A stretch of 64,000 nucleotides of DNA from Desulfosoma sp. (lineage in GTDB: Bacteria > Desulfobacterota > Syntrophobacteria > Syntrophobacterales > DSM-9756). Below, piece after piece: positions 1,732-15,821 of the stretch (positions are counted from its first letter, which is position 1; each line of letters begins with the position of its first letter). The notes beneath the pieces were generated by a model, which saw nothing but the letters and a program-made list of their open reading frames with translations, was not told the DNA's origin and did not search any database. The translations under genes and the position numbers were made by a program. The stretch covers positions 1 to 64,000 of the forward strand of contig JBBFKW010000014.1 of the NCBI GenBank assembly GCA_037481835.1. The letters run 5' to 3'.

Positions 1732-3900
1732 ATGGCGCACGTTCTCATCACCACCTTGGGAAGAAACTGGCAGATCGTTCCGGAAATCCTCGGGTGGACC
1801 AACCCGGATCTGGTGGACCTTTACGCAAACCATCCCAACCGGGACGAATTGAGAGCTCTTCGGGCCGAGTACAACATCGAACCCATTGAAAGCCTTTGGA
1901 TCATCACCACGGACGATTCGGCGATCCAGAAGGCCCTGGAACGGCTTAAAGACTGGCGGCGTGCCGTGGGGGCCCGGGGCATGCGGTTCCGGGTCGTTCG
2001 GGTGAGCGGGATTCACGATCTGTCGTCTCTTGCCGAATGCCGCCGGATAAGAGAGGCCATCCACCAGGTGGTTCTTCGAGGGTCCAGGGAGGCGGGCGCG
2101 GAAGGCTCCCTCGTCTTGTCCCTCACCGGCGGCCGAAAGACCATGAGCAGCGACATGCAGGCCGCAGCCTCCTTTTTCGGGTGCCGCGCCCTGGTCCATA
2201 TCGTCGGCCGGGACGACAAGCTGGAGCACTTTAAAAAACTAGACATCCAAGACTTCTGCAAGCCTTTACCGCCAGCGCTCGCCGACGCCGCCACCCCCGT
2301 GGTGGTGGGTCGGCATGCGCCCAGCCCCCTCCTGGACTATCCGGATCCCCGCGGAGAGCCCCTGTCCGATTGCCTCCAGGAAAGCCTCCAAACCGATTCG
2401 GCTTTTCATTCCTTCTGGGAGGATCTCAGCCTGTCCGTGGAGGACACCCGCCTGCTCGATGCCCTGGAAAACCGCTTGAAGGCCGCTTCCAACCTGGCGG
2501 CCAATTACGCCAGCCGCATCATCCAAGAAGAAACCTCGGCCAACTTCCTGGCCCTCTACAGCCTTCCTCCCCGGGAGATTCAAAGGCTCAAGGAAATCGT
2601 GGTGGGCGCCGACCCAAACCCACAGCGGCAGGCAGCGGAACTGGACCTGCTTCGCCGGCTGCCCAAGGCCGAACTCCACTGCCACCTGGGAGGCGTGCTC
2701 ACCGTCGGGGAAATCATCCAAGTGGCCGACTCCGTCCGCGAAAGAATCAAAGAATGCCGAGGGCGGCTCCAGCCGTGGCTCGAGGGGTGGAAATCCCGCC
2801 TGGAAACCGAAGATCCCGACCGCTTGGGGGAAACGCTCCAATGGAAGGAACTGCGACGGCCCGTTTCGGGCGTGCCCGAACCGCTTGCCGTGGCCGCCTT
2901 CCTGCTTCTTTTCGAGTCCTGCCCGCACGTTCTGGAAAAGATGATCTACGGCAACTACCTGAAGGAAGAAAACTTCGTGGGTATCGGATTCGACGCCTAC
3001 GAGCGCTTGGGCGATCTTCAGGGATCGGCCCTGCTGCAGTGTGAAGAAACCCTTCGGGCCGCCTGCCGGATCCTGGGCCGCAAAGCCCGGGAACACAACG
3101 TACTCCACCTGGAAGTGCGCTGTTCTCCCAAGAACTACACGCGGGGAGGCTTGAGCTCGGCGAGCGTGCTCGAAATCATCGCGGACGAATTGGCCCGAAG
3201 CGGTCCCGAATCCACCGTGGTGCTTCTCATCGGCAGCCGCCACCGCGACTTGGCGGCGCTGAGCGAAAGCGTGGCCCTGGCCGAACAGGCGTTGGCCGAC
3301 GAGGGGACCGCCTCCCGGATGCTGGTCGGCTTCGATCTGGCCGGAAACGAAAAGGCCCTGGAGGCGGCGGAAGTGCGTCGGGCCTTCCTGCCGCTTATGG
3401 AACGGTGCCTACATGCCACGATCCATGCCGGGGAGATCGCGGACGCTTCCAGCATTTGGCAGGCGGTCTATCATCTCAACGCGGAGCGCATCGGGCACGG
3501 TCTCACCCTCGAAGGGAATCCGGACCTCCTGGAGCGTTTCCGAGACCGGCGGATCGCCGTGGAGATGTGTCCTTCCAGCAACTGCCAGATCGTGGGCTTT
3601 CGGGACTCTCATCTGCCCGGAACGGCCTCTCGGCCGATCTATCCCCTTTCCGCGTATTTGAATAAGGGGCTTCGAGTCACGGTCAACACGGACAACCCGG
3701 GTATCTCGCGGACCGACTTTTCCAGGGAATACCACCGGGCGGGGCGCCTCAGCCCCGAGGGTTTAAGCCTTTGGGACCTTCTGCTCCTCATCCGAAACGG
3801 CTTTAAGGCGGCTTTCACCGAAGCCCCCAAGCGCCATGATCTCCTTCGAAAGGCGGAAAACAGGATCCTTCACGTGCTGGAAACTGCCTTTGATCTATGA
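1732..3900 (+). CDS. cad1: CARF (NE0113-like) - adenosine deaminase fusion, type III CRISPR effector (Cad1/CAAD family)
   Basis: N-terminal CARF motifs VLITTLG...SLTGGRKTMS; C-terminal deaminase motifs LPKAELHCHLGG, HAGE, RIGHG, EMCPSSN, VNTDNPG; adjacent to the array and csm genes. Confidence 0.92.
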   Translation: MAHVLITTLGRNWQIVPEILGWTNPDLVDLYANHPNRDELRALRAEYNIEPIESLWIITTDDSAIQKALERLKDWRRAVGARGMRFRVVRVSGIHDLSSLAECRRIREAIHQVVLRGSREAGAEGSLVLSLTGGRKTMSSDMQAAASFFGCRALVHIVGRDDKLEHFKKLDIQDFCKPLPPALADAATPVVVGRHAPSPLLDYPDPRGEPLSDCLQESLQTDSAFHSFWEDLSLSVEDTRLLDALENRLKAASNLAANYASRIIQEETSANFLALYSLPPREIQRLKEIVVGADPNPQRQAAELDLLRRLPKAELHCHLGGVLTVGEIIQVADSVRERIKECRGRLQPWLEGWKSRLETEDPDRLGETLQWKELRRPVSGVPEPLAVAAFLLLFESCPHVLEKMIYGNYLKEENFVGIGFDAYERLGDLQGSALLQCEETLRAACRILGRKAREHNVLHLEVRCSPKNYTRGGLSSASVLEIIADELARSGPESTVVLLIGSRHRDLAALSESVALAEQALADEGTASRMLVGFDLAGNEKALEAAEVRRAFLPLMERCLHATIHAGEIADASSIWQAVYHLNAERIGHGLTLEGNPDLLERFRDRRIAVEMCPSSNCQIVGFRDSHLPGTASRPIYPLSAYLNKGLRVTVNTDNPGISRTDFSREYHRAGRLSPEGLSLWDLLLLIRNGFKAAFTEAPKRHDLLRKAENRILHVLETAFDL

Positions 3901-4367
3901 GCTCGGAAGAGCACGTCTGGTGCGTCCCGCGCCACGCTGTGCCGGCCGCCTGGCTGGAGCGGCGGGCCGCTCTTCGCCGCCCCTGCGGGTTCTGTCTTGA
4001 GGTCCTGGACGCGGCGGGCTGCTGTTCCATGCCACGGGGAGAAATAAAAAGGATCCGCGCTGCGAGCAGATCGTCCCTTACGCGGTGGCCCTGGATCCCC
4101 GGGGTTCAGGGTGGGTTGTTATGCGCGCAAGGGCTCGGAAAAGCGGCTCCATGGAGGGGCATCGGTTTGATCTTTCAGGGAATCATCAACGAGGAGGAAT
4201 CCGCCGTGGGCGAAGTGCCCCTGGGAGTCCTCTTCCGCATGGACCTTTCGACCCCGGAACCCCTCCGGCCCGGCGCCGAACTCCATGGGTTTAAGGGGGT
4301 CCCCCTTTCCCAGGCGGGCCGGCATCCCCCGAAGCTATGGTCCGGCCTGGCCCTCGAACTTCTCTAG
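3897..4367 (+). pseudogene. Frameshifted, internally deleted Nudix-family phosphoesterase (COG4112-like)
   Basis: ATGA overlap with cad1. Family motifs are split over three frames: DPRCEQIVPY (~4052), YARKGSEKRLHG (~4120) and GIINEEESAVGEVPLGV (~4180). The central GGH/Nudix box is missing. Confidence 0.7.
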
Positions 4368-4441: not shown

Positions 4442-5614
4442 CTATAAGCAATCTCCTGTGGTAAGAATCAGCCATCCGAATGGCATGGCGAGGTTTCCGT
4501 TGTCCATGGCGCACAGGGTCCTGGTGGATCCCATGTCGCGGATGGGTCTCCTTGCCTGGACGTTATATCCCTGGCGGAGTCCATCGACTGAAAGCGACTC
4601 AAAATGGGAAAAACGTCCGACCCGCAATAAGACCCTCTTTCGAGGCTGCTGCTCGGAAAACCAATACGGGGTGCTCGGGTCCAGGATCATCACTTGGCCG
4701 TCGGGAAGCTTCGCCCGAGGGAAACGTTCGTGGATGGCCTTCCAATGTTTGTCGTTTTTTCCCCGGCCGTAAAACTTGTCCGCTTCCGCCAGCATCCGCC
4801 CCCAGTAAAACCGGTTGCAGGCGTCAAAGAGGGTTTTGGCGTCCAGTTTTCTGCCGAGAAGCCGGGCTATCTCCGGCCGATTCATCTTTTCTTCGTCAAT
4901 TTGAATTTCCACCTCGAACGCGGGAGGTTTCCAGGTGTCGGCAAACGAGACCAGGCGCTCCACCCACATCTGGATATTTTCCGATCCCGGCTTATTGGGG
5001 TTCCAGTTCATGGCCCGGTCGATCCGGGTGGCTTCGTCGGGAAGTTCCACGTCACGAACCTTGATCAGGCGAAAGACGTCCTTTTCGGTCTGATCCGATG
5101 GCCGGTTGAGAGCCGACTCCTCGAGAACCTTCGCCTTTTTTTCCACAGCAGCTTGTTTAACCTCCGAGTGAACTCGAGGCTTGGTTTGTGGATCCAGATT
5201 GGCAAAATAATTCACCACCGCGGTTCGGATGGCTCCCTTGATGCTGGAGCCGGGCAGGAACGCCTTTTCACTCACAGGATTCCGCGGCATCATGTCCACC
5301 CGAAAACTTCGGTCCGGTGATCCGGCTTTCAGGGAAAATTCCTCCTCGAACCTTTTCGACACACCGACTCGCAGAATCCGGTCTTCGGCCTTTAAATGGG
5401 TACGAAAGAAAAGCTGGATCCCCTTGAGGTCTCCCCGGTCCACAAGCGACAGGAACCTTCGACGCTCGCTGTCGTCCAGCTCGCCGATCACCTGAGCGGG
5501 ACGGAACCGAAGGAGGAATCCCCGGTCCAGAACAAACTGCAAGGGATCGATTTCCACTGCCGAACCCACGTGAATGGGGGTGAGGGCCTGGGCCGTAAAA
5601 CAATAGGTGGTCAT
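4442..5614 (-). CDS. csm5: Type III-A RAMP protein Csm5
   Basis: LTPIHVGS, LPGSSIKGAIRTA, C-terminal PFGW; last gene of the csm operon; ATG overlaps the csm4 stop. Confidence 0.9.
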   Translation of the reverse strand: MTTYCFTAQALTPIHVGSAVEIDPLQFVLDRGFLLRFRPAQVIGELDDSERRRFLSLVDRGDLKGIQLFFRTHLKAEDRILRVGVSKRFEEEFSLKAGSPDRSFRVDMMPRNPVSEKAFLPGSSIKGAIRTAVVNYFANLDPQTKPRVHSEVKQAAVEKKAKVLEESALNRPSDQTEKDVFRLIKVRDVELPDEATRIDRAMNWNPNKPGSENIQMWVERLVSFADTWKPPAFEVEIQIDEEKMNRPEIARLLGRKLDAKTLFDACNRFYWGRMLAEADKFYGRGKNDKHWKAIHERFPRAKLPDGQVMILDPSTPYWFSEQQPRKRVLLRVGRFSHFESLSVDGLRQGYNVQARRPIRDMGSTRTLCAMDNGNLAMPFGWLILTTGDCL

Positions 5615-6558
5615 CCTTCCACCTCCGTGAAAAATAGGGGTAGGTGAACGGCGTAGTGGCACACCTGGGCCAGCTTGGGATCGTGATGGACTCCCTCGAG
5701 GATCGCCCCGAAAGGACCTTCTCCACGGGGAGCGAATGTCGCTCCCGGTTGCGCCATCAAGATGGGATACTTGAACGGGCTGAATCCGCCCTTGGCATAG
5801 TCACCGCCCAACTTCCCGAAGTGCACATGTTGCTTGTATCTGGCATCCGCCATGTTCTTTGCCACGATGCCGTGAGAAAGGCTCACGGCCTTGTTGCCCC
5901 CCTGGTCAAAGAGATCGGTTTCCTCAATCTCTATGCGGAACCCACCGTTGCCGGTGCTCGCATTGGCACCAAAGCCGTGGGTGCCGACGAAGTCCAAAAG
6001 CTCCTTGAGATCATCCACACAGGGGAGCTCCCCGGCCACATAGACCTGCCACCTGTGACGGCTTCCGTGGGGCACCAGATCCTCGAAATAGAGCCCCCCC
6101 AACTCCGGAGTTGTTCCGGAACGTCTGTCGATCCGGTTATGGGGCCGGACCGTTTCCCCGGCCGATCCGGCATGGCGGTGCGTCTTCTTTCCTCCCTTAG
6201 GCAAATCGATCAGTTCGGCACTGAGGGAGGCTTCGCTCAAGGCGTCGCGCACCTTCCGGAACACATCTTCGGGGATCCAGGAAAGCTTTCGCACTGCCTT
6301 TTCCCTTTCCATATCCTTGAGGGATTCTTGCGGGCCGGCCCGGCGGGCCCTTTTGAGAAGAGGACGAGGGAGCATTCCCTCGGGCATGGCGCTGGATACC
6401 AGCCATGGCCGTTTTTTTTGCTCGTCCAGCCAGGCGAGAAACTTCCTCTCTCCGCGCAAATAGCGGACCGCCCACGCCAAATGCCCCCATAGGGTGCCGG
6501 ATATCATGGGAGTTCCCAGGGGCCCTTGCAAGGCAACTCTCACCCGATAAGCATTCAT
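5611..6558 (-). CDS. csm4: Type III-A RAMP protein Csm4 (Cas5 group)
   Basis: SGTLWG, VSSAMP, HNRIDR, Gly loop GFGANASTGNG; position between csm3 and csm5. Confidence 0.9.
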   Translation of the reverse strand: MNAYRVRVALQGPLGTPMISGTLWGHLAWAVRYLRGERKFLAWLDEQKKRPWLVSSAMPEGMLPRPLLKRARRAGPQESLKDMEREKAVRKLSWIPEDVFRKVRDALSEASLSAELIDLPKGGKKTHRHAGSAGETVRPHNRIDRRSGTTPELGGLYFEDLVPHGSRHRWQVYVAGELPCVDDLKELLDFVGTHGFGANASTGNGGFRIEIEETDLFDQGGNKAVSLSHGIVAKNMADARYKQHVHFGKLGGDYAKGGFSPFKYPILMAQPGATFAPRGEGPFGAILEGVHHDPKLAQVCHYAVHLPLFFTEVEG

Positions 6559-6559
6559 T

Positions 6560-7288
6560 TCAGGCACTCCTGCGGATTTCGAGGATCTTTTCCGGCGAGA
6601 TGGATTCGAACCGCTCCTGGATATCCTCTCCATTGAGCCGCAATCCTCGGAATCGAATCCGACCGTATCCTCTGGAACCGGAACCGCCGAGGCAGTCGTG
6701 TTCGAGAAGACGCATTGCCGCCAGCAGATGTTCGAAATAGGCCTCGTCCGTCCGCCCTTCATCGCCCGTGTCAAAGACGCGATACAGAATGGTCAGATCA
6801 AACTGGGAACCGGCCGGCACCCTTTCCGTCTTGCGGATTCCTACTCCGGCTTTGCCCTGGATGCGATTGATGTTGTTCTCGAACTTTTCTTCCGTAAACG
6901 GCAGACCCATTTCCACCAAGCGGTCGCGCCATTCCCTCTTGAAAGGACAATCGCGAACGATGAGGCGCGTAGGACCCGCCATCCATGTCTTCAGGGTGGT
7001 CCCGAAAATACGCAGAACCGGATCCGCGGCCAAGACCTCGGGATTCGTCTCTCCTCCTCCCTGCCACGTATCCCCGCTGCTTTCGACCCGGTTGGTCGCC
7101 CATTCCATCAGGCAACGAAGCTTACCCTTCAGGGAAGACCCGGGGATGTAGGGTTCCCTGGTGTAGGGGTTTTTCACCACCGGATTGTCCACGCCGCCGA
7201 TTTCTATAGCGTCCTTGCCCGCACCGATGTGAAGCCCGGTCATGACTTCCACATATCCTGTAACGACCTTGGTGCCGATGAGCTTCAT
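6560..7288 (-). CDS. csm3: Type III-A backbone RNase Csm3
   Basis: TGLHIGAG, IGGVDNPVVK (catalytic Asp present), PYIPGSSLKGKLR, LGGSGSRGYG. Confidence 0.96.
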   Translation of the reverse strand: MKLIGTKVVTGYVEVMTGLHIGAGKDAIEIGGVDNPVVKNPYTREPYIPGSSLKGKLRCLMEWATNRVESSGDTWQGGGETNPEVLAADPVLRIFGTTLKTWMAGPTRLIVRDCPFKREWRDRLVEMGLPFTEEKFENNINRIQGKAGVGIRKTERVPAGSQFDLTILYRVFDTGDEGRTDEAYFEHLLAAMRLLEHDCLGGSGSRGYGRIRFRGLRLNGEDIQERFESISPEKILEIRRSA

Positions 7289-7300
7289 GGGACCCCCTCC

Positions 7301-7771
7301 TTAATTGTCTGCGGCAAAATAGCGATGGAAAGCCACCACCGCCTCGAAGATCCGAGAAAAGGCCTTCAGGTCCTTGATATCCCGAATGGATTCAACATGA
7401 TCGAAGATGAACTGTGAAAAGGAGCGCGGAGAAACTTTGCGTTTCTCCGCGTACAGCGCCTTGGCCTTGAACATGCGAATCAGGGCAAGATCCCGCTGCA
7501 AATTGGCTTCCTGCACCTGAACGCTTTCTCCCATCAGGATCCTGCGCTCGATGGCCTTGAATTCGTCGTAAAAACGTCTCAGCTGGGTGGACTTGAGATC
7601 ACGGCCAAACGCCCTCGCCCACTCCAGGGCCTTTTCATCCACCAGCTTGGGATCGAGCTGCTCTTTCTGGGAATCGGTATAATATAGAATGGTATTGGCC
7701 CGCGGCACACCGGAGTCCCCGGAATTCCCCCTGAACGCATTCCTTTGAGATTCTTGACGTCCCGAAGACAT
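7301..7771 (-). CDS. csm2: Type III-A small subunit Csm2
   Basis: STQLRRFYD...FEAVVAFHRY helical signature; GAAGGAGG RBS before the ATG at 7771. Confidence 0.92.
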   Translation of the reverse strand: MSSGRQESQRNAFRGNSGDSGVPRANTILYYTDSQKEQLDPKLVDEKALEWARAFGRDLKSTQLRRFYDEFKAIERRILMGESVQVQEANLQRDLALIRMFKAKALYAEKRKVSPRSFSQFIFDHVESIRDIKDLKAFSRIFEAVVAFHRYFAADN

Positions 7772-7784
7772 GTGGTCACCTCCT

Positions 7785-10340
7785 TCATGCAGTTCGCTGA
7801 CGATAGAGTGCAATGGTCAACGGCAACCTCCAATCGTAGAGATTGGAATGCTCCGTGGTGAAACGAAGCTGGTCGTCCAAACCAAGATGCGTAAGCCACG
7901 CGAGCAAGATTTGCTGCTTGGCTTTGGCGTCCTGAGCCCTGATGTTCCTGGACAGATGGTAAGCCAGATGTGCCCTCCAGTTGGCTTTCCGCAAATCACC
8001 ATTCTCCATGAAAGCCTCAGCGTCCTTGATGATGTCGAACAGCTTGTGCAGGAAACCGGTGCTCACCAGGGCGCTTTCCACCAGTTGTTCATGGATCCAC
8101 TGGGCATCCTGGAGGCGTTGCGCATACCGATCCCAGGGAATCGGCCTTGGCAGGATGGCGCACACCTTGTTACGTCCCTCCTCCTTGGCCGTTTCCAGGA
8201 AAGACTCCGCTTCCCACACGCCGCGATTCACCGGGTAGTTGGGCTTGATGAGGGTCAAGCCCGCCGACAGAGTGATGCTGGGATTTCGGCCCGTATATTC
8301 CCGGAACGTCTCGTAAATCCTGTGAGTCAATGCCATGGTTTGCCGCCAGGGGCCGATCATCAAAAGATCGTCCCCGCCCGCATAGACGGTGTAGGTGTCG
8401 GGAAACTCGCGGTGAAGCAGCCCCTTGAGATAACCCGTGAAGTAGAGGTCCAACATTCGGGAAAGCTGGGCCACCCGGGATATGGAAAGCCTGTCCTTTG
8501 CCTCGTCTTTGCGGCGAAAACCCGAACTGAAGATAAACCCCAGGTAATCCACGTCCGCCTTCAGCAGCCCGAGATATCTCCGCCCCATGAGCCGGCCGTC
8601 GGGGTCCAGTTCCAAGCTCAAGGCGGCAATATGCTGGAACGTCTTGACACCCAACCGTTCCGCTGAGCCGTCTTCTTCCTCTTCTAGCCTCTCGAACCTC
8701 GGGTCTTTCAATTCCCCCGAATTTTTGAAGACCGGCACGTGATTGGCCAGGGTCCTGCGGCACCAGGGAATTTCGCCGGGGTCTCCGACGATCTTCTGCA
8801 CGGACAAAAAAGGAACGGCGTTTTCCTCGTCCGGGCCGTCACTTGAGACGGCCAAATCCAGATCCAGGATTCGGAAAGGCTGCAAGGACTTGGGAAGTCC
8901 ACGCCCCCACGCCACGTATTTTCCCTGGACCAGCTTCCGGCCTATTTGAAACTCCATGTGACAGGTGGGGCACCTCCACACAAGGTCTTCTTCCACCACG
9001 GCGGGTCGAACTCCGCAGGCGCTGCAGGCCCTATCTTCGGGATATTCCCGTTTCAGCACGCCGTGGGGCACAGTGGCCAAGGGGCGAAATTTGGCCTCCT
9101 CGATCTTAACGGCCAACTCATGAAAGATTCGGTTCAAATTCCAGGGCTTGAAATCTTCGGCCGCAAACGGATCGGACAGCGCCAAGTTAAGGGCCAGGGA
9201 GCCCGTGTACTTGTCCAACAGCCATGCGTCGATCTCGCGCCGGAGCTCATCCACCTTGGATTCCAGATCCGGGACGTCGGCAACCAGAGCCAAGAAACGT
9301 CCGCCCGCTTTTTGAAGGACGCAGCAGTAGGGGAGATCCAGCGCTTCCAATACCCGTAGAGCGCCCGCTTCAACCAACGCGCCCATGGCGAAGGACCTGG
9401 CCCGCAAGATCTTGTTGACGCCCCGGACTCCCTGTGCCTGAAGGGTAAAGAGAGTTTTCTGAATCCCCGACAGGTCGCCGCTCAAGAATCGAAACTTCTT
9501 TTCCTTTTCATCGCGAATGGCCCTCTCGTCATTCAGGTTTCCTCGGATTTCGTGAAACCTGTAAAGGCATGCGGCGATGGCTGCCGTGGTTCTTGAATGA
9601 TCGTAGAGAGAAATGTCGGGACAATCGATGGTGCTGGACGGCACGGCCCAGAAGTACCGCTCCAGCAGTCCCAGTATCATCTCCTCCAAGAGCCGAAAGG
9701 AAATGCGACGGGGATACAGGAGAGCCGTTCTTTTGAAATCTTCCTTGAAGCCCAGGCAGACGTCCCGGTACCGCTGGGGCAAATCGTCCATCAAGCCATT
9801 GGGAGTCCACGGGATCGGAAGCAGCGCCGTATCGTCTTCGGGATCCAGCGGAACAAGGCGATAGGCGTGACGGGTCGGCTTGTCCAAATTCTTTTCACCG
9901 AGCACCACTTCATCAAAAATGCAGCTGAGCGGTGTTTTCTTATAGGCATCGCGGGTGCTGTCGGAACCGCCACCCTCCTCTGCCTCATCCGGCCTGCGAT
10001 CCATTCCTGCGGATAACCGATCGGCAACGGCACACAACCAGGAAGCCGCCGGCTCGGGTGAAGAGTCGGGTCTATGGTGATAACTGGCTATATTGTCCAC
10101 GTGTTGGAGATTCAAAGAACCGCCGAAAGTCAGTCCCTCTTTTTCCATCCAATCCATAAAGGCGCTTGTGAAAAGAACATGCTTGTGCGAATAGCGCCCC
10201 CTGCAGCTGGGGCACAAGGTGGACTCCAGGTTTAGGTCCACTCCGCAGGCCTCCCTGATGGACGTAAAGCCTCTTTGAAGCGGTTTTCCCACATCGTGCA
10301 GCAACGCCCCAACAACCACTTCTTTCATGGAATAGGCCAT
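7785..10340 (-). CDS. cas10: Cas10/Csm1 with HD nuclease and cyclase palm domains
   Basis: LLHDVGK HD motif, ISLYDH, GDLSGIQ, CSAC..CPTC zinc finger, KADVD and YAGGDD. Confidence 0.97.
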   Translation of the reverse strand: MAYSMKEVVVGALLHDVGKPLQRGFTSIREACGVDLNLESTLCPSCRGRYSHKHVLFTSAFMDWMEKEGLTFGGSLNLQHVDNIASYHHRPDSSPEPAASWLCAVADRLSAGMDRRPDEAEEGGGSDSTRDAYKKTPLSCIFDEVVLGEKNLDKPTRHAYRLVPLDPEDDTALLPIPWTPNGLMDDLPQRYRDVCLGFKEDFKRTALLYPRRISFRLLEEMILGLLERYFWAVPSSTIDCPDISLYDHSRTTAAIAACLYRFHEIRGNLNDERAIRDEKEKKFRFLSGDLSGIQKTLFTLQAQGVRGVNKILRARSFAMGALVEAGALRVLEALDLPYCCVLQKAGGRFLALVADVPDLESKVDELRREIDAWLLDKYTGSLALNLALSDPFAAEDFKPWNLNRIFHELAVKIEEAKFRPLATVPHGVLKREYPEDRACSACGVRPAVVEEDLVWRCPTCHMEFQIGRKLVQGKYVAWGRGLPKSLQPFRILDLDLAVSSDGPDEENAVPFLSVQKIVGDPGEIPWCRRTLANHVPVFKNSGELKDPRFERLEEEEDGSAERLGVKTFQHIAALSLELDPDGRLMGRRYLGLLKADVDYLGFIFSSGFRRKDEAKDRLSISRVAQLSRMLDLYFTGYLKGLLHREFPDTYTVYAGGDDLLMIGPWRQTMALTHRIYETFREYTGRNPSITLSAGLTLIKPNYPVNRGVWEAESFLETAKEEGRNKVCAILPRPIPWDRYAQRLQDAQWIHEQLVESALVSTGFLHKLFDIIKDAEAFMENGDLRKANWRAHLAYHLSRNIRAQDAKAKQQILLAWLTHLGLDDQLRFTTEHSNLYDWRLPLTIALYRQRTA

Positions 10341-10373: not shown

Positions 10374-11423
10374 TCATAATTCGCCCAGATCGGGCAGATC
10401 GTAGGTGCCGAGACCGAACGTGGTATTTTTCCCTACCCCGAGCCAGGAACCCAACAGAAGGGCCGGGACGAAATCCTCCAGGGGTCCCCTGAAGCAGATT
10501 TCTCCCACCAGCCCTCCCAGCTTCATGCGGCGGTCTTGTCTCTTCGAATAGCGTTCCCAGTCGTGCCAGTGCAGGCTGGACCAAACCGTCATCACCTGTT
10601 CGATCCTCTCTTTCCAGGGCCCCCAGTCCACAAAAGCCGGGCCCTCGCAATGGAAATGGAGGAGGTTTTCCAGGCGCCTCAAGGTGGTTCGAAAGAGCAC
10701 TGCGAAGGACAGCTCCCGGCACAGGGACCCGTTGCTCTGAATTCTCAAGGGACTAAGAAGCCGCAGGCGAAGTTGCCGACCGCCTCGATATTCGGCACCG
10801 ATGGCGAGGGCCTCCTGAACCCCCAAGACCATGGGGGCTTCTTTGGCATCCAGGTCCGGGTAAAGGGTTTGAACCGGATCGCCCCTCCCGTCCAGCACGA
10901 CGATCCCGATGAGATCAAATCGACCGCGCCCCTTGCCGACTCCCAACCGCCCCATGATCTGAAAGGCATGGATAAAGGACGGCAACCACCGGATGGCCCG
11001 GCCCGTCAGCGTGACCCTGAAAGAAAAGATTTGACCTCTTTCAAGAAGCTCCTCACCGCCCACTTGAAGTTGAAAGTTGAAGGGATGGGGCGCATCCCGA
11101 TAGCGCCCCGCCTTGACGAAACAGTGATCCGGCTCCGTATTGAACAGGTACATGTAGACGCACTTGGAGCGAAGCCCGCATTCTTGGCAGTCATTCCTGG
11201 GAAGAAGACAAAGGGCCTTTTTGAGTGCCAGCCCGAAAACCCCCCGGAGAGAACTCCCGCGGTAATGGGGCAATTGCACTGTCTCCAGAGCTCTGACCTC
11301 GACCAAGAGCCTCACACACCTCAGTCTGGCGAACTGTTCGTATACTGCCAGGGTTTCCCTCCAGCCCTCTGACCCGCCCACCCCCGGGCTCTCCGCGATT
11401 TTTCTCGCCTCATGCAGCCTCAT
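10374..11423 (-). CDS. cas6: CRISPR endoribonuclease Cas6
   Basis: GSSLRGVFG, Cys cluster, C-terminal GVGKNTTFGLG loop; upstream of cas10. Confidence 0.92.
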   Translation of the reverse strand: MRLHEARKIAESPGVGGSEGWRETLAVYEQFARLRCVRLLVEVRALETVQLPHYRGSSLRGVFGLALKKALCLLPRNDCQECGLRSKCVYMYLFNTEPDHCFVKAGRYRDAPHPFNFQLQVGGEELLERGQIFSFRVTLTGRAIRWLPSFIHAFQIMGRLGVGKGRGRFDLIGIVVLDGRGDPVQTLYPDLDAKEAPMVLGVQEALAIGAEYRGGRQLRLRLLSPLRIQSNGSLCRELSFAVLFRTTLRRLENLLHFHCEGPAFVDWGPWKERIEQVMTVWSSLHWHDWERYSKRQDRRMKLGGLVGEICFRGPLEDFVPALLLGSWLGVGKNTTFGLGTYDLPDLGEL

Positions 11424-11843
11424 ACCTACGACCTTTTCCCCCAGGTCCCGTCACAAAGTTTTCCCCTCGCAAGGTGCGGGCACCGAGAACCCCCATGCGC
11501 CAGGTGCTCATCTGCAATGGAAACCATCGAGTCATAGGCGCCCTCATAGGTAGGGGAACCTCCCTCGTTCGGTAGAGAAGGCGCGTGACCTCATTTTTTT
11601 GTCGCTTGTTCACCCTTTCTTACGGCACCCCTGGTCGGATTTTCAAAAGAACGGAATGTGAACTTTTTCTCGTACCGTCAACCGCATTGTCAAGCGCTAT
11701 CGCATTCGCGTATTGGGTCTTTAAAATCTGGGCTCTCCGTGCTGTAGTTACCAGGAGAGACGAAGGGCCGTCAGCACCCTGTATGGAGAGAAAGGAGCCC
11801 CGATATGCGCCAGGGTCATAAGGGCCCCTGGACAAGGTTGTCC

Positions 11844-12195
11844 ATGCCGCAAAGGTGCCTTCAGGAGGTCATCGCCACTCCCGGCTATAAAGCTGTCTTG
11901 GGGTCGCTGGCCTCACATCCTTACAATCGCGATGAGATGTTGACGACCATCTGGTGGCTCTTTGCGCCAACACGCCGCGGCGGAAACTGGCCCGCCTACC
12001 ATCTGGGGAAATTCATCTTCTTCCTTGGCACATCGCACTCAGAGCTGTTCGTCGGCCTGCATGTGGAAAAAGGTATCGGACAAGAACTGGCGGAAGCCTA
12101 TGGCACCCGAGTGGGCCGCACCCTCCGGTTGGACAAAACCTGGCTCTGGCACCGATTTCTCAAGCACCTTGGAGACGGCACTGTGGCGCACGCTA
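11844..12195 (+). pseudogene. Truncated hypothetical gene fragment
   Basis: Protein-like segment (PYNRD..WWLFAP..WPAYHLGK..GLHVEKG) that degenerates into non-protein-like sequence near 12195. Confidence 0.45.
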
Positions 12196-12635
12196 GGGGA
12201 GTTTCACCATCTCAAGGGCTTTTCGTCCCCGTTCCCCTGGGAAACCGCCCGGCGTCTTACCAACCTCTTCGATCCTCCCGCGGTGGTGGAAATTGGACCG
12301 GATGGCGCGCTCATAGGCGGGGAGGCTCCAGTACGGCGCCCGGTGCAGGAAGCCCTGGTGCATCGAACCCGCCGGGGCGACTTGGTGCGTTCCAAGTCCG
12401 AAGTCATCATCGCCGATCTGCTCTACAGCAAGAACATCCCCTACCGGTACGAACAGCCCCTGTGGGACGCGGCGGGCAACGTGCGCTACCCGGACTTCAC
12501 CATCGAGGACGCCGAAACGGGCCTGGTGATCTACTGGGAGCACCTGGGCATGCTGTTCGATCCGGACTATCGCGCCCGCTGGGAGCGCAAGAAGGCGTGG
12601 TATGAAGCCCAGGGAATACGGCCGTGGGAAGGAGT
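12195..12635 (+). pseudogene. C-terminal fragment of a RecD-like helicase/PD-(D/E)XK nuclease
   Basis: ETARRLTNLF..VRSKSEVIIAD..YEQPL..YPDFTI..YWEHLGM..W.RK..WY motifs; no credible start codon; no helicase core. Confidence 0.6.
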
Positions 12636-12640
12636 GATTC

Positions 12641-13705
12641 ATGGCCCGAGAAATCCTCTGCACTGTGGGAACGTCCCTGCTGACCAACCGGGATGACCGG
12701 CCCTGGGGCGGCTGGAGCCCTCGGGACGGTCGGCCCCTGCCTGAACCGGACCTCGTGGACGATTGGCTCCAGAGCGCCGATCTCCGCACCGCCAGCGCCG
12801 AGACGAACACCTTGAGCCGGCTGGACATTGTGGAAACCGATGTCTTGGCCTTCCTCCATTCCGAAACGGAGGAAGGAAAGTTCTGTGCAGAGCGACTAAA
12901 AAGCTTCTATGGGACAAGGGCATGGAAAGTCGATTTGGAAAAGATCAGCCGGCTCGGTTATGGGGCCTACACATTCACCGCGGGCCTCAAGGCCCTGGTG
13001 GACGTCACCATTCGTAGAGTGCACAAAGCCTACGAGGCGGGCCGTCATGTGCTTTTTTTCGCCACCGGGGGCTTCAAGGCGGAAATCGCCTTTCTAAACC
13101 TTGTGGGAGCCCTGCTGGGAATCGAAGTCGTCTACATCCATGAATTGCACCATGAGTTGGTTCGCCTGCCGCGCTTGCCCCTGAGCTGGGATCCGGAATT
13201 CGTGGAACAGCACAAGGATTTCTTCAACTGGATCGACGAGGAACCCAGAAAGAGCACTGAGGTGGAATCCTGGCTGCAGGCACGGCCCGATCTGCGATCC
13301 CTCGTGGAAGACGCCGATGACGGATACACCTACCTCTCCGCGGCGGGAGATCTTCTCTTCAAGGTGGCCAGGGAGCGGATCGCCATGGGGCCGCGGGTCA
13401 CCTGGCCGAAGGCCGATCCTAGGCCTCCCGCTGCAAAAAACCAAGTGTCGACTGTCGAACATCATCGTCCTCCAGGCTGGGAACACTATGTGGCTCGACT
13501 CTGCGCCATCGACTGCGTCACCGCCGTCCGTTACGACCCGCGCGCTCGATCAGGGTCGCGCGTGAAAGTCCTGGACCCGCAAAACGGCGTCGTGGGGGCG
13601 ACTTATGGCGATACAGAAAACTGTTTGCCGCTGCGCATAGAAACAACGGCACGTGGCGCTCGGCAGACGGAAATGGTGGCGGAACACATCCGAGGCTTGA
13701 AATGA
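12641..13705 (+). CDS. CRISPR-associated CARF protein (APE2256 family) with uncharacterised C-terminal domain
   Basis: ILCTVGTSLL, HSETEEG..CAE, ATGGFKAE, VYIHE..LP.LP motifs; AAGGAG RBS; additional ~170 aa C-terminal region. Confidence 0.85.
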   Translation: MAREILCTVGTSLLTNRDDRPWGGWSPRDGRPLPEPDLVDDWLQSADLRTASAETNTLSRLDIVETDVLAFLHSETEEGKFCAERLKSFYGTRAWKVDLEKISRLGYGAYTFTAGLKALVDVTIRRVHKAYEAGRHVLFFATGGFKAEIAFLNLVGALLGIEVVYIHELHHELVRLPRLPLSWDPEFVEQHKDFFNWIDEEPRKSTEVESWLQARPDLRSLVEDADDGYTYLSAAGDLLFKVARERIAMGPRVTWPKADPRPPAAKNQVSTVEHHRPPGWEHYVARLCAIDCVTAVRYDPRARSGSRVKVLDPQNGVVGATYGDTENCLPLRIETTARGARQTEMVAEHIRGLK

Positions 13706-14885: not shown

Positions 14886-15821
14886 TCAAAATTCATAGGA
14901 CCAGAAAGCGGCTATCCCTTTGTGCGCCAGATAGGCCTCCACGTTGGGGTGGAAGTCGTGGGCCACGAAGAGGCAGAAAGGATTGCGGATCACACCGGAT
15001 CGCTCCAGGCGGTCCACAGCCTTGAGGAAGCGGTCCACTTCGGTGCGTGAGGGCCTCACCTTGCATTCCCCAACAATGGTCACGGGCTGCCCGTCCCGTT
15101 CCCCATCGCCGTAAATATTGACTTGGAAGCCTTCCAGATAGCAGCGACGCAAAGGCCCGTTGACCGTGACGCCGCGGGCGGCCAAAAGAGTCGGCAGGGC
15201 TTTGTAGGCCGCATTTTCCAGCGTGTAGCCGACCGAGTTGGAGACGCCCTCAAGACGCTCGTTGGTGCGCTTGAGGGTTTCTTCCGTCCGCCTTTGAGCG
15301 GCGGCGAGTTCTTCGAGGCGCTCTTCGGTGCATTTCTGAGCGACGGCGAGCTCCTCGACCCGCAGGGTGAGGGCCTCCAGTCGGTCTTCTGTGCGTTTTT
15401 GAGCGGCGGCCAGTTCTTCGAGGCGCTCTTCGGTTCGTTTTTGGGCGGCGGCGAGCTCCTCGACCCGCAGGGTGAGGGCCTCCAGTCGGTCTTCGGTGCG
15501 TTTCTGAGCGGCGGCCAGTTCTTCGAGGCGTTCTTCGGTGCGTTTTTGGGCGGCGGCGAGCTCTTCGACCCGCAGGGTGAGGGCCTCCAGTCGGTCTTCT
15601 GTGCGTTTCTGGGCGGCGGCGAGTTCTTCGAGGCGTTCCTCGGTGCGTTTTTGGGCCGTGGCCAATTCGGAGACCACAGCCTTGAGTTCAGCGAATTCCG
15701 TCTTCGTGACGGTCTGCTGCAAGTCCCCATAGATTTGGCGAAGGGTCTTCACAAGGGTCCGCGCCTGGGTTTCCCCCATGGTCTGAACAAATTCTTCATA
15801 AACTTGATAAAAATCAATCAT
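14886..15821 (-). CDS. Heptad-repeat coiled-coil protein with C-terminal PD-(D/E)XK-like domain (DUF3782-like)
   Basis: Repeated [14 protein letters not shown] heptads; C-terminal VNIYG..IVGECK. Confidence 0.8.
15290..15670 (-). repeat. Intragenic ~105-bp (35-aa) tandem repeat, about 3.5 copies
   Basis: [35 protein letters not shown] units, near-identical at the DNA level. Confidence 0.9.

Follow-up and report, generated by a model that had tools for sequence, protein, structure and literature searches.

The gene at positions 12641-13705 (+ strand) of the 64,000-nucleotide (nt) stretch of Desulfosoma sp. DNA analysed here, referred to as the window, encodes a protein in which a CARF7 sensor domain is joined through a winged helix-turn-helix (wHTH) part to a C-terminal tail labelled DUF2103-like. 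Judged by its sequence, this protein is intact and belongs, as an ordinary member, to the CARF7-wHTH-DUF2103-like family known from catalogues. Our analysis establishes its three-part architecture, its family membership, the difference of the tail from RelE, the linkage of the family to type III CRISPR systems and the recurrence of the tail in slots of the kind that toxins occupy. We think that the protein probably acts as a self-limiting effector gated by cyclic tetra-adenylate (cA4), and that its tail would be toxic, most plausibly as a metal-independent nuclease. An earlier reading of the window, made from its letters and hereafter called the sequence-only reading, had put the protein forward as a new effector candidate; this novelty has to be withdrawn, since catalogues already list the family as CARF7_DUF2103 and the tail domain has been proposed in print as an effector domain. 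The two functions suggested there, an effector gated by cyclic oligoadenylate (cOA) and possibly limiting itself, or an off-switch for the neighbouring deaminase, are still the two leading readings.

Architecture of the CARF7 protein

The open reading frame (ORF) starts with ATG and runs without interruption for 354 amino acids (aa). The gene and its parts are located as follows.

12641-13705, + strand: gene for the CARF7, wHTH and DUF2103-like tail protein, 354 aa plus stop codon (ORF list, translation and PADLOC model PDLC01931)
12629-12634, + strand: putative Shine-Dalgarno-like AAGGAG, 6 nt before the ATG (read from the sequence)
12641-13186, + strand: CARF7 (APE2256) sensor domain, residues 1-182 (PF09651)
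13193-13384, + strand: helical/winged-helix linker, residues 185-248, common to Cami1 and Sis0811 (model and profile matches)
13385-13702, + strand: DUF2103-like tail, residues 249-354, in which an extended arm precedes the alpha-beta4-alpha core (tail-only model and conservation)

The sequence-only reading had recognised an APE2256 CARF domain, a wHTH-like linker and an alpha/beta tail of about 100 aa, and all three parts were recovered in family searches and structural models. Residues 50-179 match PF09651 (Cas_APE2256) in Pfam with an E value of 2.6e-27 and 95.8 bits against a cut-off of 24.8, residues 42-178 match TIGR02619 in NCBIfam with 87.7 bits against a cut-off of 37.45, and the three motifs quoted in that reading (VEHHRPPGW, RLCAIDCV and LRIETTARG) were all located in the translation. 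An AlphaFold2 model built with 40 homologues, with a predicted local distance difference test score (pLDDT) of 85, opens with a Rossmann-like CARF domain (residues 1 to ~180), continues through a helical/winged-helix part (185-248) and closes with an alpha-beta4-alpha domain at the C-terminus, the latter made of a helix (280-288), four strands (293-298, 308-312, 317-323 and 328-335) and a second helix (340-351). Modelled alone from 64 diverse sequences, the tail reached a pLDDT of 94 and a predicted template modelling (pTM) score of 0.86. Its arm carries W255-P256, P263, K266 and H274-H275-R276-P277-x-G279-W280, and the end of its core is formed by E334-T335-T336-A337.

The sensor part belongs, as had been supposed, to the CARF clade that contains the Crn1-type ring nucleases and Cami1. 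The nearest entries of the PDB by sequence are Sis0811 (7pq2 and relatives), Cami1 (8phb and 8phj) and Sso1393 (3qyf), with alignments limited to residues ~37-251, and Foldseek places apo Cami1 first among the matches of the full model (E 8e-14). To judge from these relatives, the protein would bind cOA as a dimer. G10-T11-S12 and G143-G144-F145-K146 are invariant in the 40 homologues and make up a candidate ring-nuclease site. K146 is aligned to K169 of Sis0811, and S12 and K169 are, by the entry titles, the residues mutated in deposited Sis0811 variants such as 7pqa; S12 of the window protein lies in the invariant GTS motif and the N-terminus falls outside the alignments, so that its match to Sis0811 S12 is positional only. 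Residues 49-191 also give a partial match to NF040951, 'CRISPR system ring nuclease' (E 3e-11), with 42.7 bits against a cut-off of 600.

The tail is catalogued as DUF2103-like and is distinct from RelE

At full length, the protein is recognised by PADLOC model PDLC01931 ('CARF7--CARF_DUF2103'), residues 3-351 aligning with profile positions 2-336 of 340 (E 2.5e-135). The relation of the tail to RelE was judged mainly by a reciprocal test of isolated tails against PADLOC models, which is stronger than profile comparison with hhalign; Pfam is unusable for this purpose, because only PF09651 was found in Cami1 of Allochromatium vinosum and in four Cami1-type proteins. The tail of the window protein alone matched PDLC01931 (positions 243-336, E 4.2e-30), PDLC01930 and PDLC01927 and no RelE-type model. 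Cami1-type tails, taken from two proteins and from A. vinosum Cami1, showed the reverse, matching only the RelE-type PDLC01937, PDLC01936 and PDLC01939 and no DUF2103-type model. PDLC01033 ('CARF+RelE') aligns with residues 3-350 of the full protein and is matched by no tail alone, so that its score comes from the shared chassis. When hhalign was applied, the CARF and wHTH parts aligned with those of Cami1-type proteins at a probability of 100% (E 1.8e-75), and the two kinds of tail, compared through shallow profiles, at a probability of 0.5%. The PADLOC tail test and hhalign thus bear out the absence of a RelE signature noted before, and by its sequence the tail is not RelE.

Structural searches gave the tail no fold neighbour. 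The best Foldseek matches of the tail model had E values of 0.089 in the PDB and 0.11 in BFVD, and there is therefore no usable fold assignment; the ESM Atlas returned nothing usable for the tail, and no RelE, YoeB, HigB, Cami1, HicA or barnase-type chain stood among the Foldseek/VIA matches listed for its model. Comparison of the tail with HicA, Gp49 and NERD tails by hhalign found nothing, with profiles too shallow for remote links. No Pfam or NCBIfam family matched the tail. The sequence-only reading had considered the tail unassignable, which still holds for Pfam families and fold neighbours and no longer for catalogued models, as PDLC01931 recognises it; the DUF2103-like domain, which it had named as one candidate, is the label used in catalogues and papers.

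This label is a loose one, since Pfam DUF2103 (PF09876) itself gave no match to the window protein at E<=1. A scan of the same genome with PF09876 at E<=10 produced one site, on another contig, and left the window gene unmatched; DUF2103 was absent among the 25 listed of the 83 Pfam families found with 64 diverse tail-bearing sequences, and Pfam DUF2103 members were present neither in the genome of one tail-bearing locus (L001) nor in 201 genomes of its phylum, matches coming from control genomes only. The CARF7 classes reportedly go back to Makarova et al. 2020. Literature searches, whose reach did not extend to that paper and to Mogila et al. 2023, returned no experimental work on the CARF7_DUF2103 family.

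Conserved residues of the tail

Conservation was scored in 64 sequences, drawn from clusters at most 50% identical, with the following result.

K266: kept in 64 of 64
H274: kept in 63 of 64
R276: kept in 59 of 64 (Lys in 4)
P277: kept in 63 of 64
T335: kept in 62 of 64
T336: kept in 60 of 64
A337: kept in 59 of 64
H275: kept in 51 of 64

Metal-independent phosphoryl-transfer enzymes use a set of Lys, His, Arg and Thr residues. We regard K266, H274, R276, T335 and T336 as the candidate catalytic residues of the tail.

The same tail is found on other scaffolds

A tail-only search of 1.84 billion representatives retrieved 76 proteins, and PF09651 was present in 41 of the 64 tail-bearing proteins that were aligned after fragments had been left out. 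Four cyanobacterial proteins of 582-672 aa (P0126, P0127, P0130 and P0141) carry the wHTH and the tail at the C-terminus of a different scaffold, made of two membrane helices flanking an outer segment and a long coiled coil. When P0127 was compared with 401 cyanobacterial genomes, 16 genomes matched, 13 of them via the N-terminal part only. Nine cyanobacterial paralogues were found to end in a HicA toxin (three), a Gp49/RelE-like domain (one), a NERD nuclease (one), HATPase_c (two) or an unrecognised C-terminus (two). The membrane-anchored coiled-coil family of the cyanobacterial loci L088-L098, with its common N-terminal module and swappable C-termini, looks like an undescribed polymorphic sensor-toxin family, a literature search for it not having been made.

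A further scaffold is that of the Menshen protein NsnC. The available part of PMC12065111 describes effector tails of NsnC that include a 'DUF2103-like' domain, which is also fused to Cas_APE2256 in CRISPR loci, and most such tails are RNases. In L079, a cyanobacterial member that matches PDLC01931 with an E value of 1.4e-134, the tail matches PADLOC NsnC at positions 194-269 of 281 (E 5e-7), and this ties the published domain to the CARF7 family; the window protein itself had no match to PADLOC NsnC at E<=0.01. On three scaffolds, namely the Cami1 chassis, membrane proteins and NsnC, the tail fills a slot that is mostly held by RNase or nuclease toxins.

The family is widespread and linked to type III CRISPR loci

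A word-indexed search matched 934 database proteins at E<=1e-3, far beyond chance. The best 120 of the 934 are 322-372 aa long, 54-69% identical to the query and aligned over 91-100% of it, all with PF09651, and their named sources are Desulfosoma, Acidobacteriota, Gemmatimonadales, Desulfobacterales, Thermovirga and Planctomycetaceae. In data with one genome per species, 319 stretches encode a CARF7 relative; by tblastn, the tail is present in 58 of the best 80, and the other 22 mostly have a different tail on the CARF7-wHTH chassis. The genome that contains the window holds one copy of the gene. Within the lineage, it turned up in 5 of the 40 relatives searched, and the three genomes of the same genus gave no match, a patchy distribution as expected of an accessory defence gene.

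Some relatives depart from the usual layout. The CARF7-wHTH protein of L071 (9998-11077) is matched beyond residue ~253 by neither RelE-type nor DUF2103-type PADLOC models, and its tail may be a third kind on this chassis. In Desulfacinum infernum DSM 9756 (L045, 10001-11066), a relative with 61% identity over residues 1-261 departs into unrelated sequence just past the conserved W-P, the tail being lost, and a Cad1 match lies in the same stretch. The match in a genome of the same family (G409) covers residues 1-256 and contains three in-frame stops.

To describe the neighbourhood of the family in 80 loci, ORFs were called, clustered and named from one Pfam-scanned representative each, and the names were extended by hidden Markov models of the clusters; in six loci the family ORF was lost through greedy ORF choice. 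The sequence-only reading had staked its proposal on homologues being linked to cas10, and this linkage was found. A type III gene lies in the fetched stretch of 41 of the 58 tail-bearing loci, and Cas10 in 33 of them; for loci of at least 10 kb, the counts are 32 and 31 out of 46, respectively. In 26 loci a type III gene directly precedes the family gene on its strand, and the usual order is cas10, the small subunit, the repeat-associated mysterious proteins (RAMPs) and then the family gene, at the end of the operon. According to our own ORF calls and clusters, 22 of the 33 Cas10 loci have no additional CARF effector cluster within ~10 kb, and for 18 of these 22 the unassigned ORFs within 7 kb, down to a length of 150 aa, were scanned with Pfam and yielded no further CARF, SAVED or HEPN effector.

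Two other arrangements were observed. In L047 (10001-12159, Chthonomonadales) and L052 (10001-12266), the family gene stands away from cas genes and convergent with the gene for ribosomal protein L10; the two genomes are related, and the arrangement carries no evidential weight. Cami1 is said to be captured by the ribosomal stalk. In L056, where no type III gene was detected, a small HEPN-domain gene (11107-11628; PF05168, E 1e-17) lies directly 3' of the family gene.

A probable self-limiting effector and its alternatives

The Cas10 translation of the locus contains both 'GALLHDVGK' and 'AGGDDLL'. With its HD and GGDD motifs present, the locus should signal by cOA, and this Cas10 is the presumed source of the signal. 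When the Csm complex meets its target RNA, Cas10, whose GGDD motif is intact, would make cOA, in all likelihood cA4. A dimer of the CARF7 protein would bind the ring in the CARF7 pocket, as other members of the family suggest, and the change would, by analogy with Cami1, be relayed via the winged-helix part and free or order the tail. The invariant residues of the tail and the company that this domain keeps point to a toxic output that would slow both the cell and the invader, likeliest as a metal-independent ribonuclease using H274 together with K266, R276 and T335/T336. Finally, the conserved S12 and K146 suggest that the CARF pocket would cut the ring slowly, which would turn off the protein itself and the neighbouring Cad1.

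Some published results bear on this scheme. As far as the available text of PMC9676260 goes, a CARF7-RelE protein of Synechocystis cleaved cOA in vitro and had no RNase activity on total RNA, and Cami1 is cited as having ring-nuclease activity in the accessible portion of PMC12409355. According to the available part of PMC11645235, Cad1 cleaved neither cA4 nor cA6 in vitro within 16 h; the locus would thus otherwise be without an off-switch, and the CARF7 protein is the only visible candidate in it for removing the cOA signal.

Several observations weigh against an effector with a nuclease tail. The nuclease idea draws on conserved residues and on the argument that the tail sits in the same slot as toxins, and two of the nine cyanobacterial paralogues end in HATPase_c, not in a toxin. 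The hhalign comparison of tails was a weak set-up: its control, Cami1-type tails against a Gp49 tail, failed, and since both are RelE-like groups, profiles as shallow as these cannot detect remote links. Whether the protein is the sole CARF protein was judged within ~10 kb of the gene only, effectors elsewhere in the genomes not having been searched for, and 11 loci do contain another CARF effector cluster (Card1-nuclease-like, Csm6 or NE0113). No type III gene occurs in the fetched stretch of 17 of the 58 loci, and 11 of these 17 stretches are 14.8-21 kb long; there, examples of the gene adjoin housekeeping genes or a restriction enzyme, and in L008, L016, L022, L035 and L047 it lies among housekeeping or other genes. 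Loss of the tail in D. infernum shows that the gene is dispensable there. Lastly, the window also carries Cad1, and a pure off-switch role would therefore suffice here.

Such a role is the alternative that survives best, although we consider it unlikely. The protein would then be a dedicated ring nuclease, whose CARF7 pocket degrades cA4 and resets Cad1 and other effectors, while the wHTH and the tail would be non-toxic and would tune stability, dimerisation or localisation. The invariance of S12 and K146, the presence of the ring nucleases Sis0811 and Sso1393 among the closest solved relatives and the partial match to NF040951 speak for it, as does the lack of ring-nuclease activity in vitro of Cad1, the other CARF protein of the locus (PMC11645235, in the part cited above). 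Moreover, a published census of ring nucleases applied a length limit of 250 aa, according to the accessible portion of PMC12409355, and would have missed a ring nuclease of 354 aa. However, the match to NF040951 lies well under the cut-off of that model, and an extra domain of ~105 aa with near-invariant Lys, His, Arg and Thr is kept across phyla. Membrane proteins without CARF carry the same tail, which also matches the NsnC model, and 22 of the 33 Cas10 loci showed no further CARF effector to be switched off.

We give still less credit to a Csa3-type regulator of transcription that would respond to cOA, combining CARF and a winged helix, in which the tail would be co-regulatory or serve oligomerisation. 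HTH and wHTH domains are frequent among CARF partners and may be regulators, according to a Domainator preprint; in the present case, the model contains a winged-helix part, and the full model matches Csa3 structures in Foldseek with E values of 4e-6 to 3e-4. In PADLOC, the window protein has no Csa3 match at E<=0.01. Against a regulator, the conserved polar residues of the tail look catalytic, not structural, and the gene is usually last in an effector operon, away from adaptation genes and promoters, which is a weak point. It is highly improbable that the protein is a divergent Cami1 whose tail is a much-changed, ribosome-dependent mRNA interferase of the RelE/BECR fold, even if the CARF7-wHTH chassis is the same, PDLC01033 aligns over nearly the whole protein and the alpha-beta-beta-beta(-beta)-alpha order of the tail is not far from the RelE core: the tail alone matches no RelE-type PADLOC model, PDLC01033 included, the hhalign comparison of tails agrees with this, no RelE-type chain stands among the listed structural matches, and BECR RNases and the DUF2103-like domain are separate classes with distinct topology in the available part of PMC12065111. 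A further point for a divergent Cami1 comes from a published 'cami1' table which, in the accessible part of the PMC11229360 supplement, lists APE2256 proteins of 216-462 aa with Cas_APE2256 as the sole listed Pfam family; the table may therefore include CARF7_DUF2103 members under the name Cami1.

The cA4-gated, self-limiting effector can be extended into a wider proposal, which is conceivable although we lean slightly against it. The tail would be a new toxin fold, a metal-independent RNase or another enzyme targeting nucleic acids through a Lys/His/Arg/Thr-Thr site, and three or more unrelated sensor scaffolds would have acquired it: CARF7 of type III CRISPR, the inactive-PIN NsnC of Menshen and the cyanobacterial coiled-coil sensors anchored in the membrane. 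CARF7-DUF2103 proteins would then be widespread self-limiting cA4 effectors that have been counted as 'Cami1' and have another target. Type III CRISPR effectors are a rich source of new biochemistry, as Cami1 and Cad1 exemplify, and this family is common, well conserved across phyla and often the sole CARF protein beside Cas10, with an output domain for which no fold neighbour is known. Should the tail prove to be a new nuclease, type III CRISPR, Menshen and the cyanobacterial membrane sensors would be explained together, and effector censuses that pool all APE2256 proteins under Cami1 would need splitting.

The type III locus in the window

The CARF7 gene is accompanied in the window by the following features.

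16-925, no strand assigned: CRISPR array of 13 repeats at 60-74 nt spacing (repeat search)
1732-3900, + strand: Cad1-type CARF-adenosine deaminase (Pfam A_deaminase and Cas_NE0113)
4442-7813, - strand: csm5, csm4, csm3 and csm2, RAMPs and small subunit (Pfam RAMPs and Csm2_III-A)
7785-10340, - strand: cas10, 851 aa, GGDD cyclase motif intact, HD motif present (Pfam Cas10 palm2, Csm1_B and HD)
10374-11423, - strand: cas6 (Pfam CRISPR_Cas6)

Cad1 matches PADLOC CARF5--CARF_ADA over its full length (E 1.3e-207). Two overlapping frames on the + strand, 11805-12605 and 11962-12696, separate cas6 from the CARF7 gene, the second running 56 nt into the CARF7 gene. Frame 11962-12696 matches PADLOC PDC-S68, a model of a candidate defence protein whose end is PD-(D/E)xK-like, at positions 1057-1187 of 1,221 only (E 2.5e-49); since no more than the last ~130 positions of the model are matched, the frame appears to be the 3' remnant of a large gene. 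The sequence-only reading had the CARF7 gene transcribed divergently from cas6, which is right as to the strands and not as to direct adjacency, a 1.2-kb stretch with this gene remnant lying between them. It had also described the gene as intact among decayed neighbours. The gene is intact and 11805-12696 looks broken, but Cas10, Csm2-5, Cas6 and Cad1 match their families well. Downstream of the CARF7 gene, a Pfam scan of the window detected no more cas genes.

A 156-aa ORF at 3897-4367 (+ strand) overlaps the stop codon of Cad1 by 4 nt and matched no Pfam, NCBIfam or PADLOC family. In L045, tblastn gave a match 47% identical to this ORF (from 11740) and a Cad1 match at 88% (from 13905), and the ORF may encode a Cad1 partner. 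The CRISPR array contains a degenerate repeat at 452-503, after which comes a spacing of only 60 nt. Two of its spacers, those that follow the repeats at 305 and 583, share their first 12 bases, which suggests an internal partial duplication of the array. Further on, a coiled-coil ORF at 14886-15821 (- strand) contains four tandem 105-nt repeats (15280-15699, 66-100% identical) and has weak matches to coiled coils of the SMC/JetC type.

Comparison with known systems

Among the closest known systems is Cami1 of A. vinosum (8phb and 8phj), which has the same CARF7 and winged-helix part, the profile of 8phb matching residues 48-241 of the window protein. The two proteins are of similar size, Cami1 too belongs to a type III locus, and its predicted ring-nuclease residues are kept in the window protein. 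By analogy, the logic is likely to be the same as well, binding of cA4 releasing a C-terminal toxin. The tails differ, however: that of Cami1 is RelE, whereas that of the window protein is unrelated to it by every test run, and identity to A. vinosum Cami1 amounts to 27% over residues 6-251 only. From the CARF7_DUF2103 family of PADLOC-DB (PDLC01930-01932), in contrast, the window protein shows no structural difference and is a full-length member of the PDLC01931 kind.

The Crn1-type ring nucleases (Sso2081, Sso1393 and Sis0811) share the CARF clade of the window protein, and Sis0811 also has an HTH after its CARF domain, as described in the available part of PMC9638899. They lack the ~100 extra residues of the window protein, which form an independent conserved domain. 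In addition, Crn1-type enzymes are mostly crenarchaeal, according to the accessible portion of PMC12409355, whereas the family of the window protein is bacterial and spread over many phyla. In Menshen, finally, the sensor or carrier part of NsnC is an inactive PIN domain within a ParB/ABC-ATPase system, as far as the available text of PMC12065111 goes, where the window protein has a CARF domain instead.

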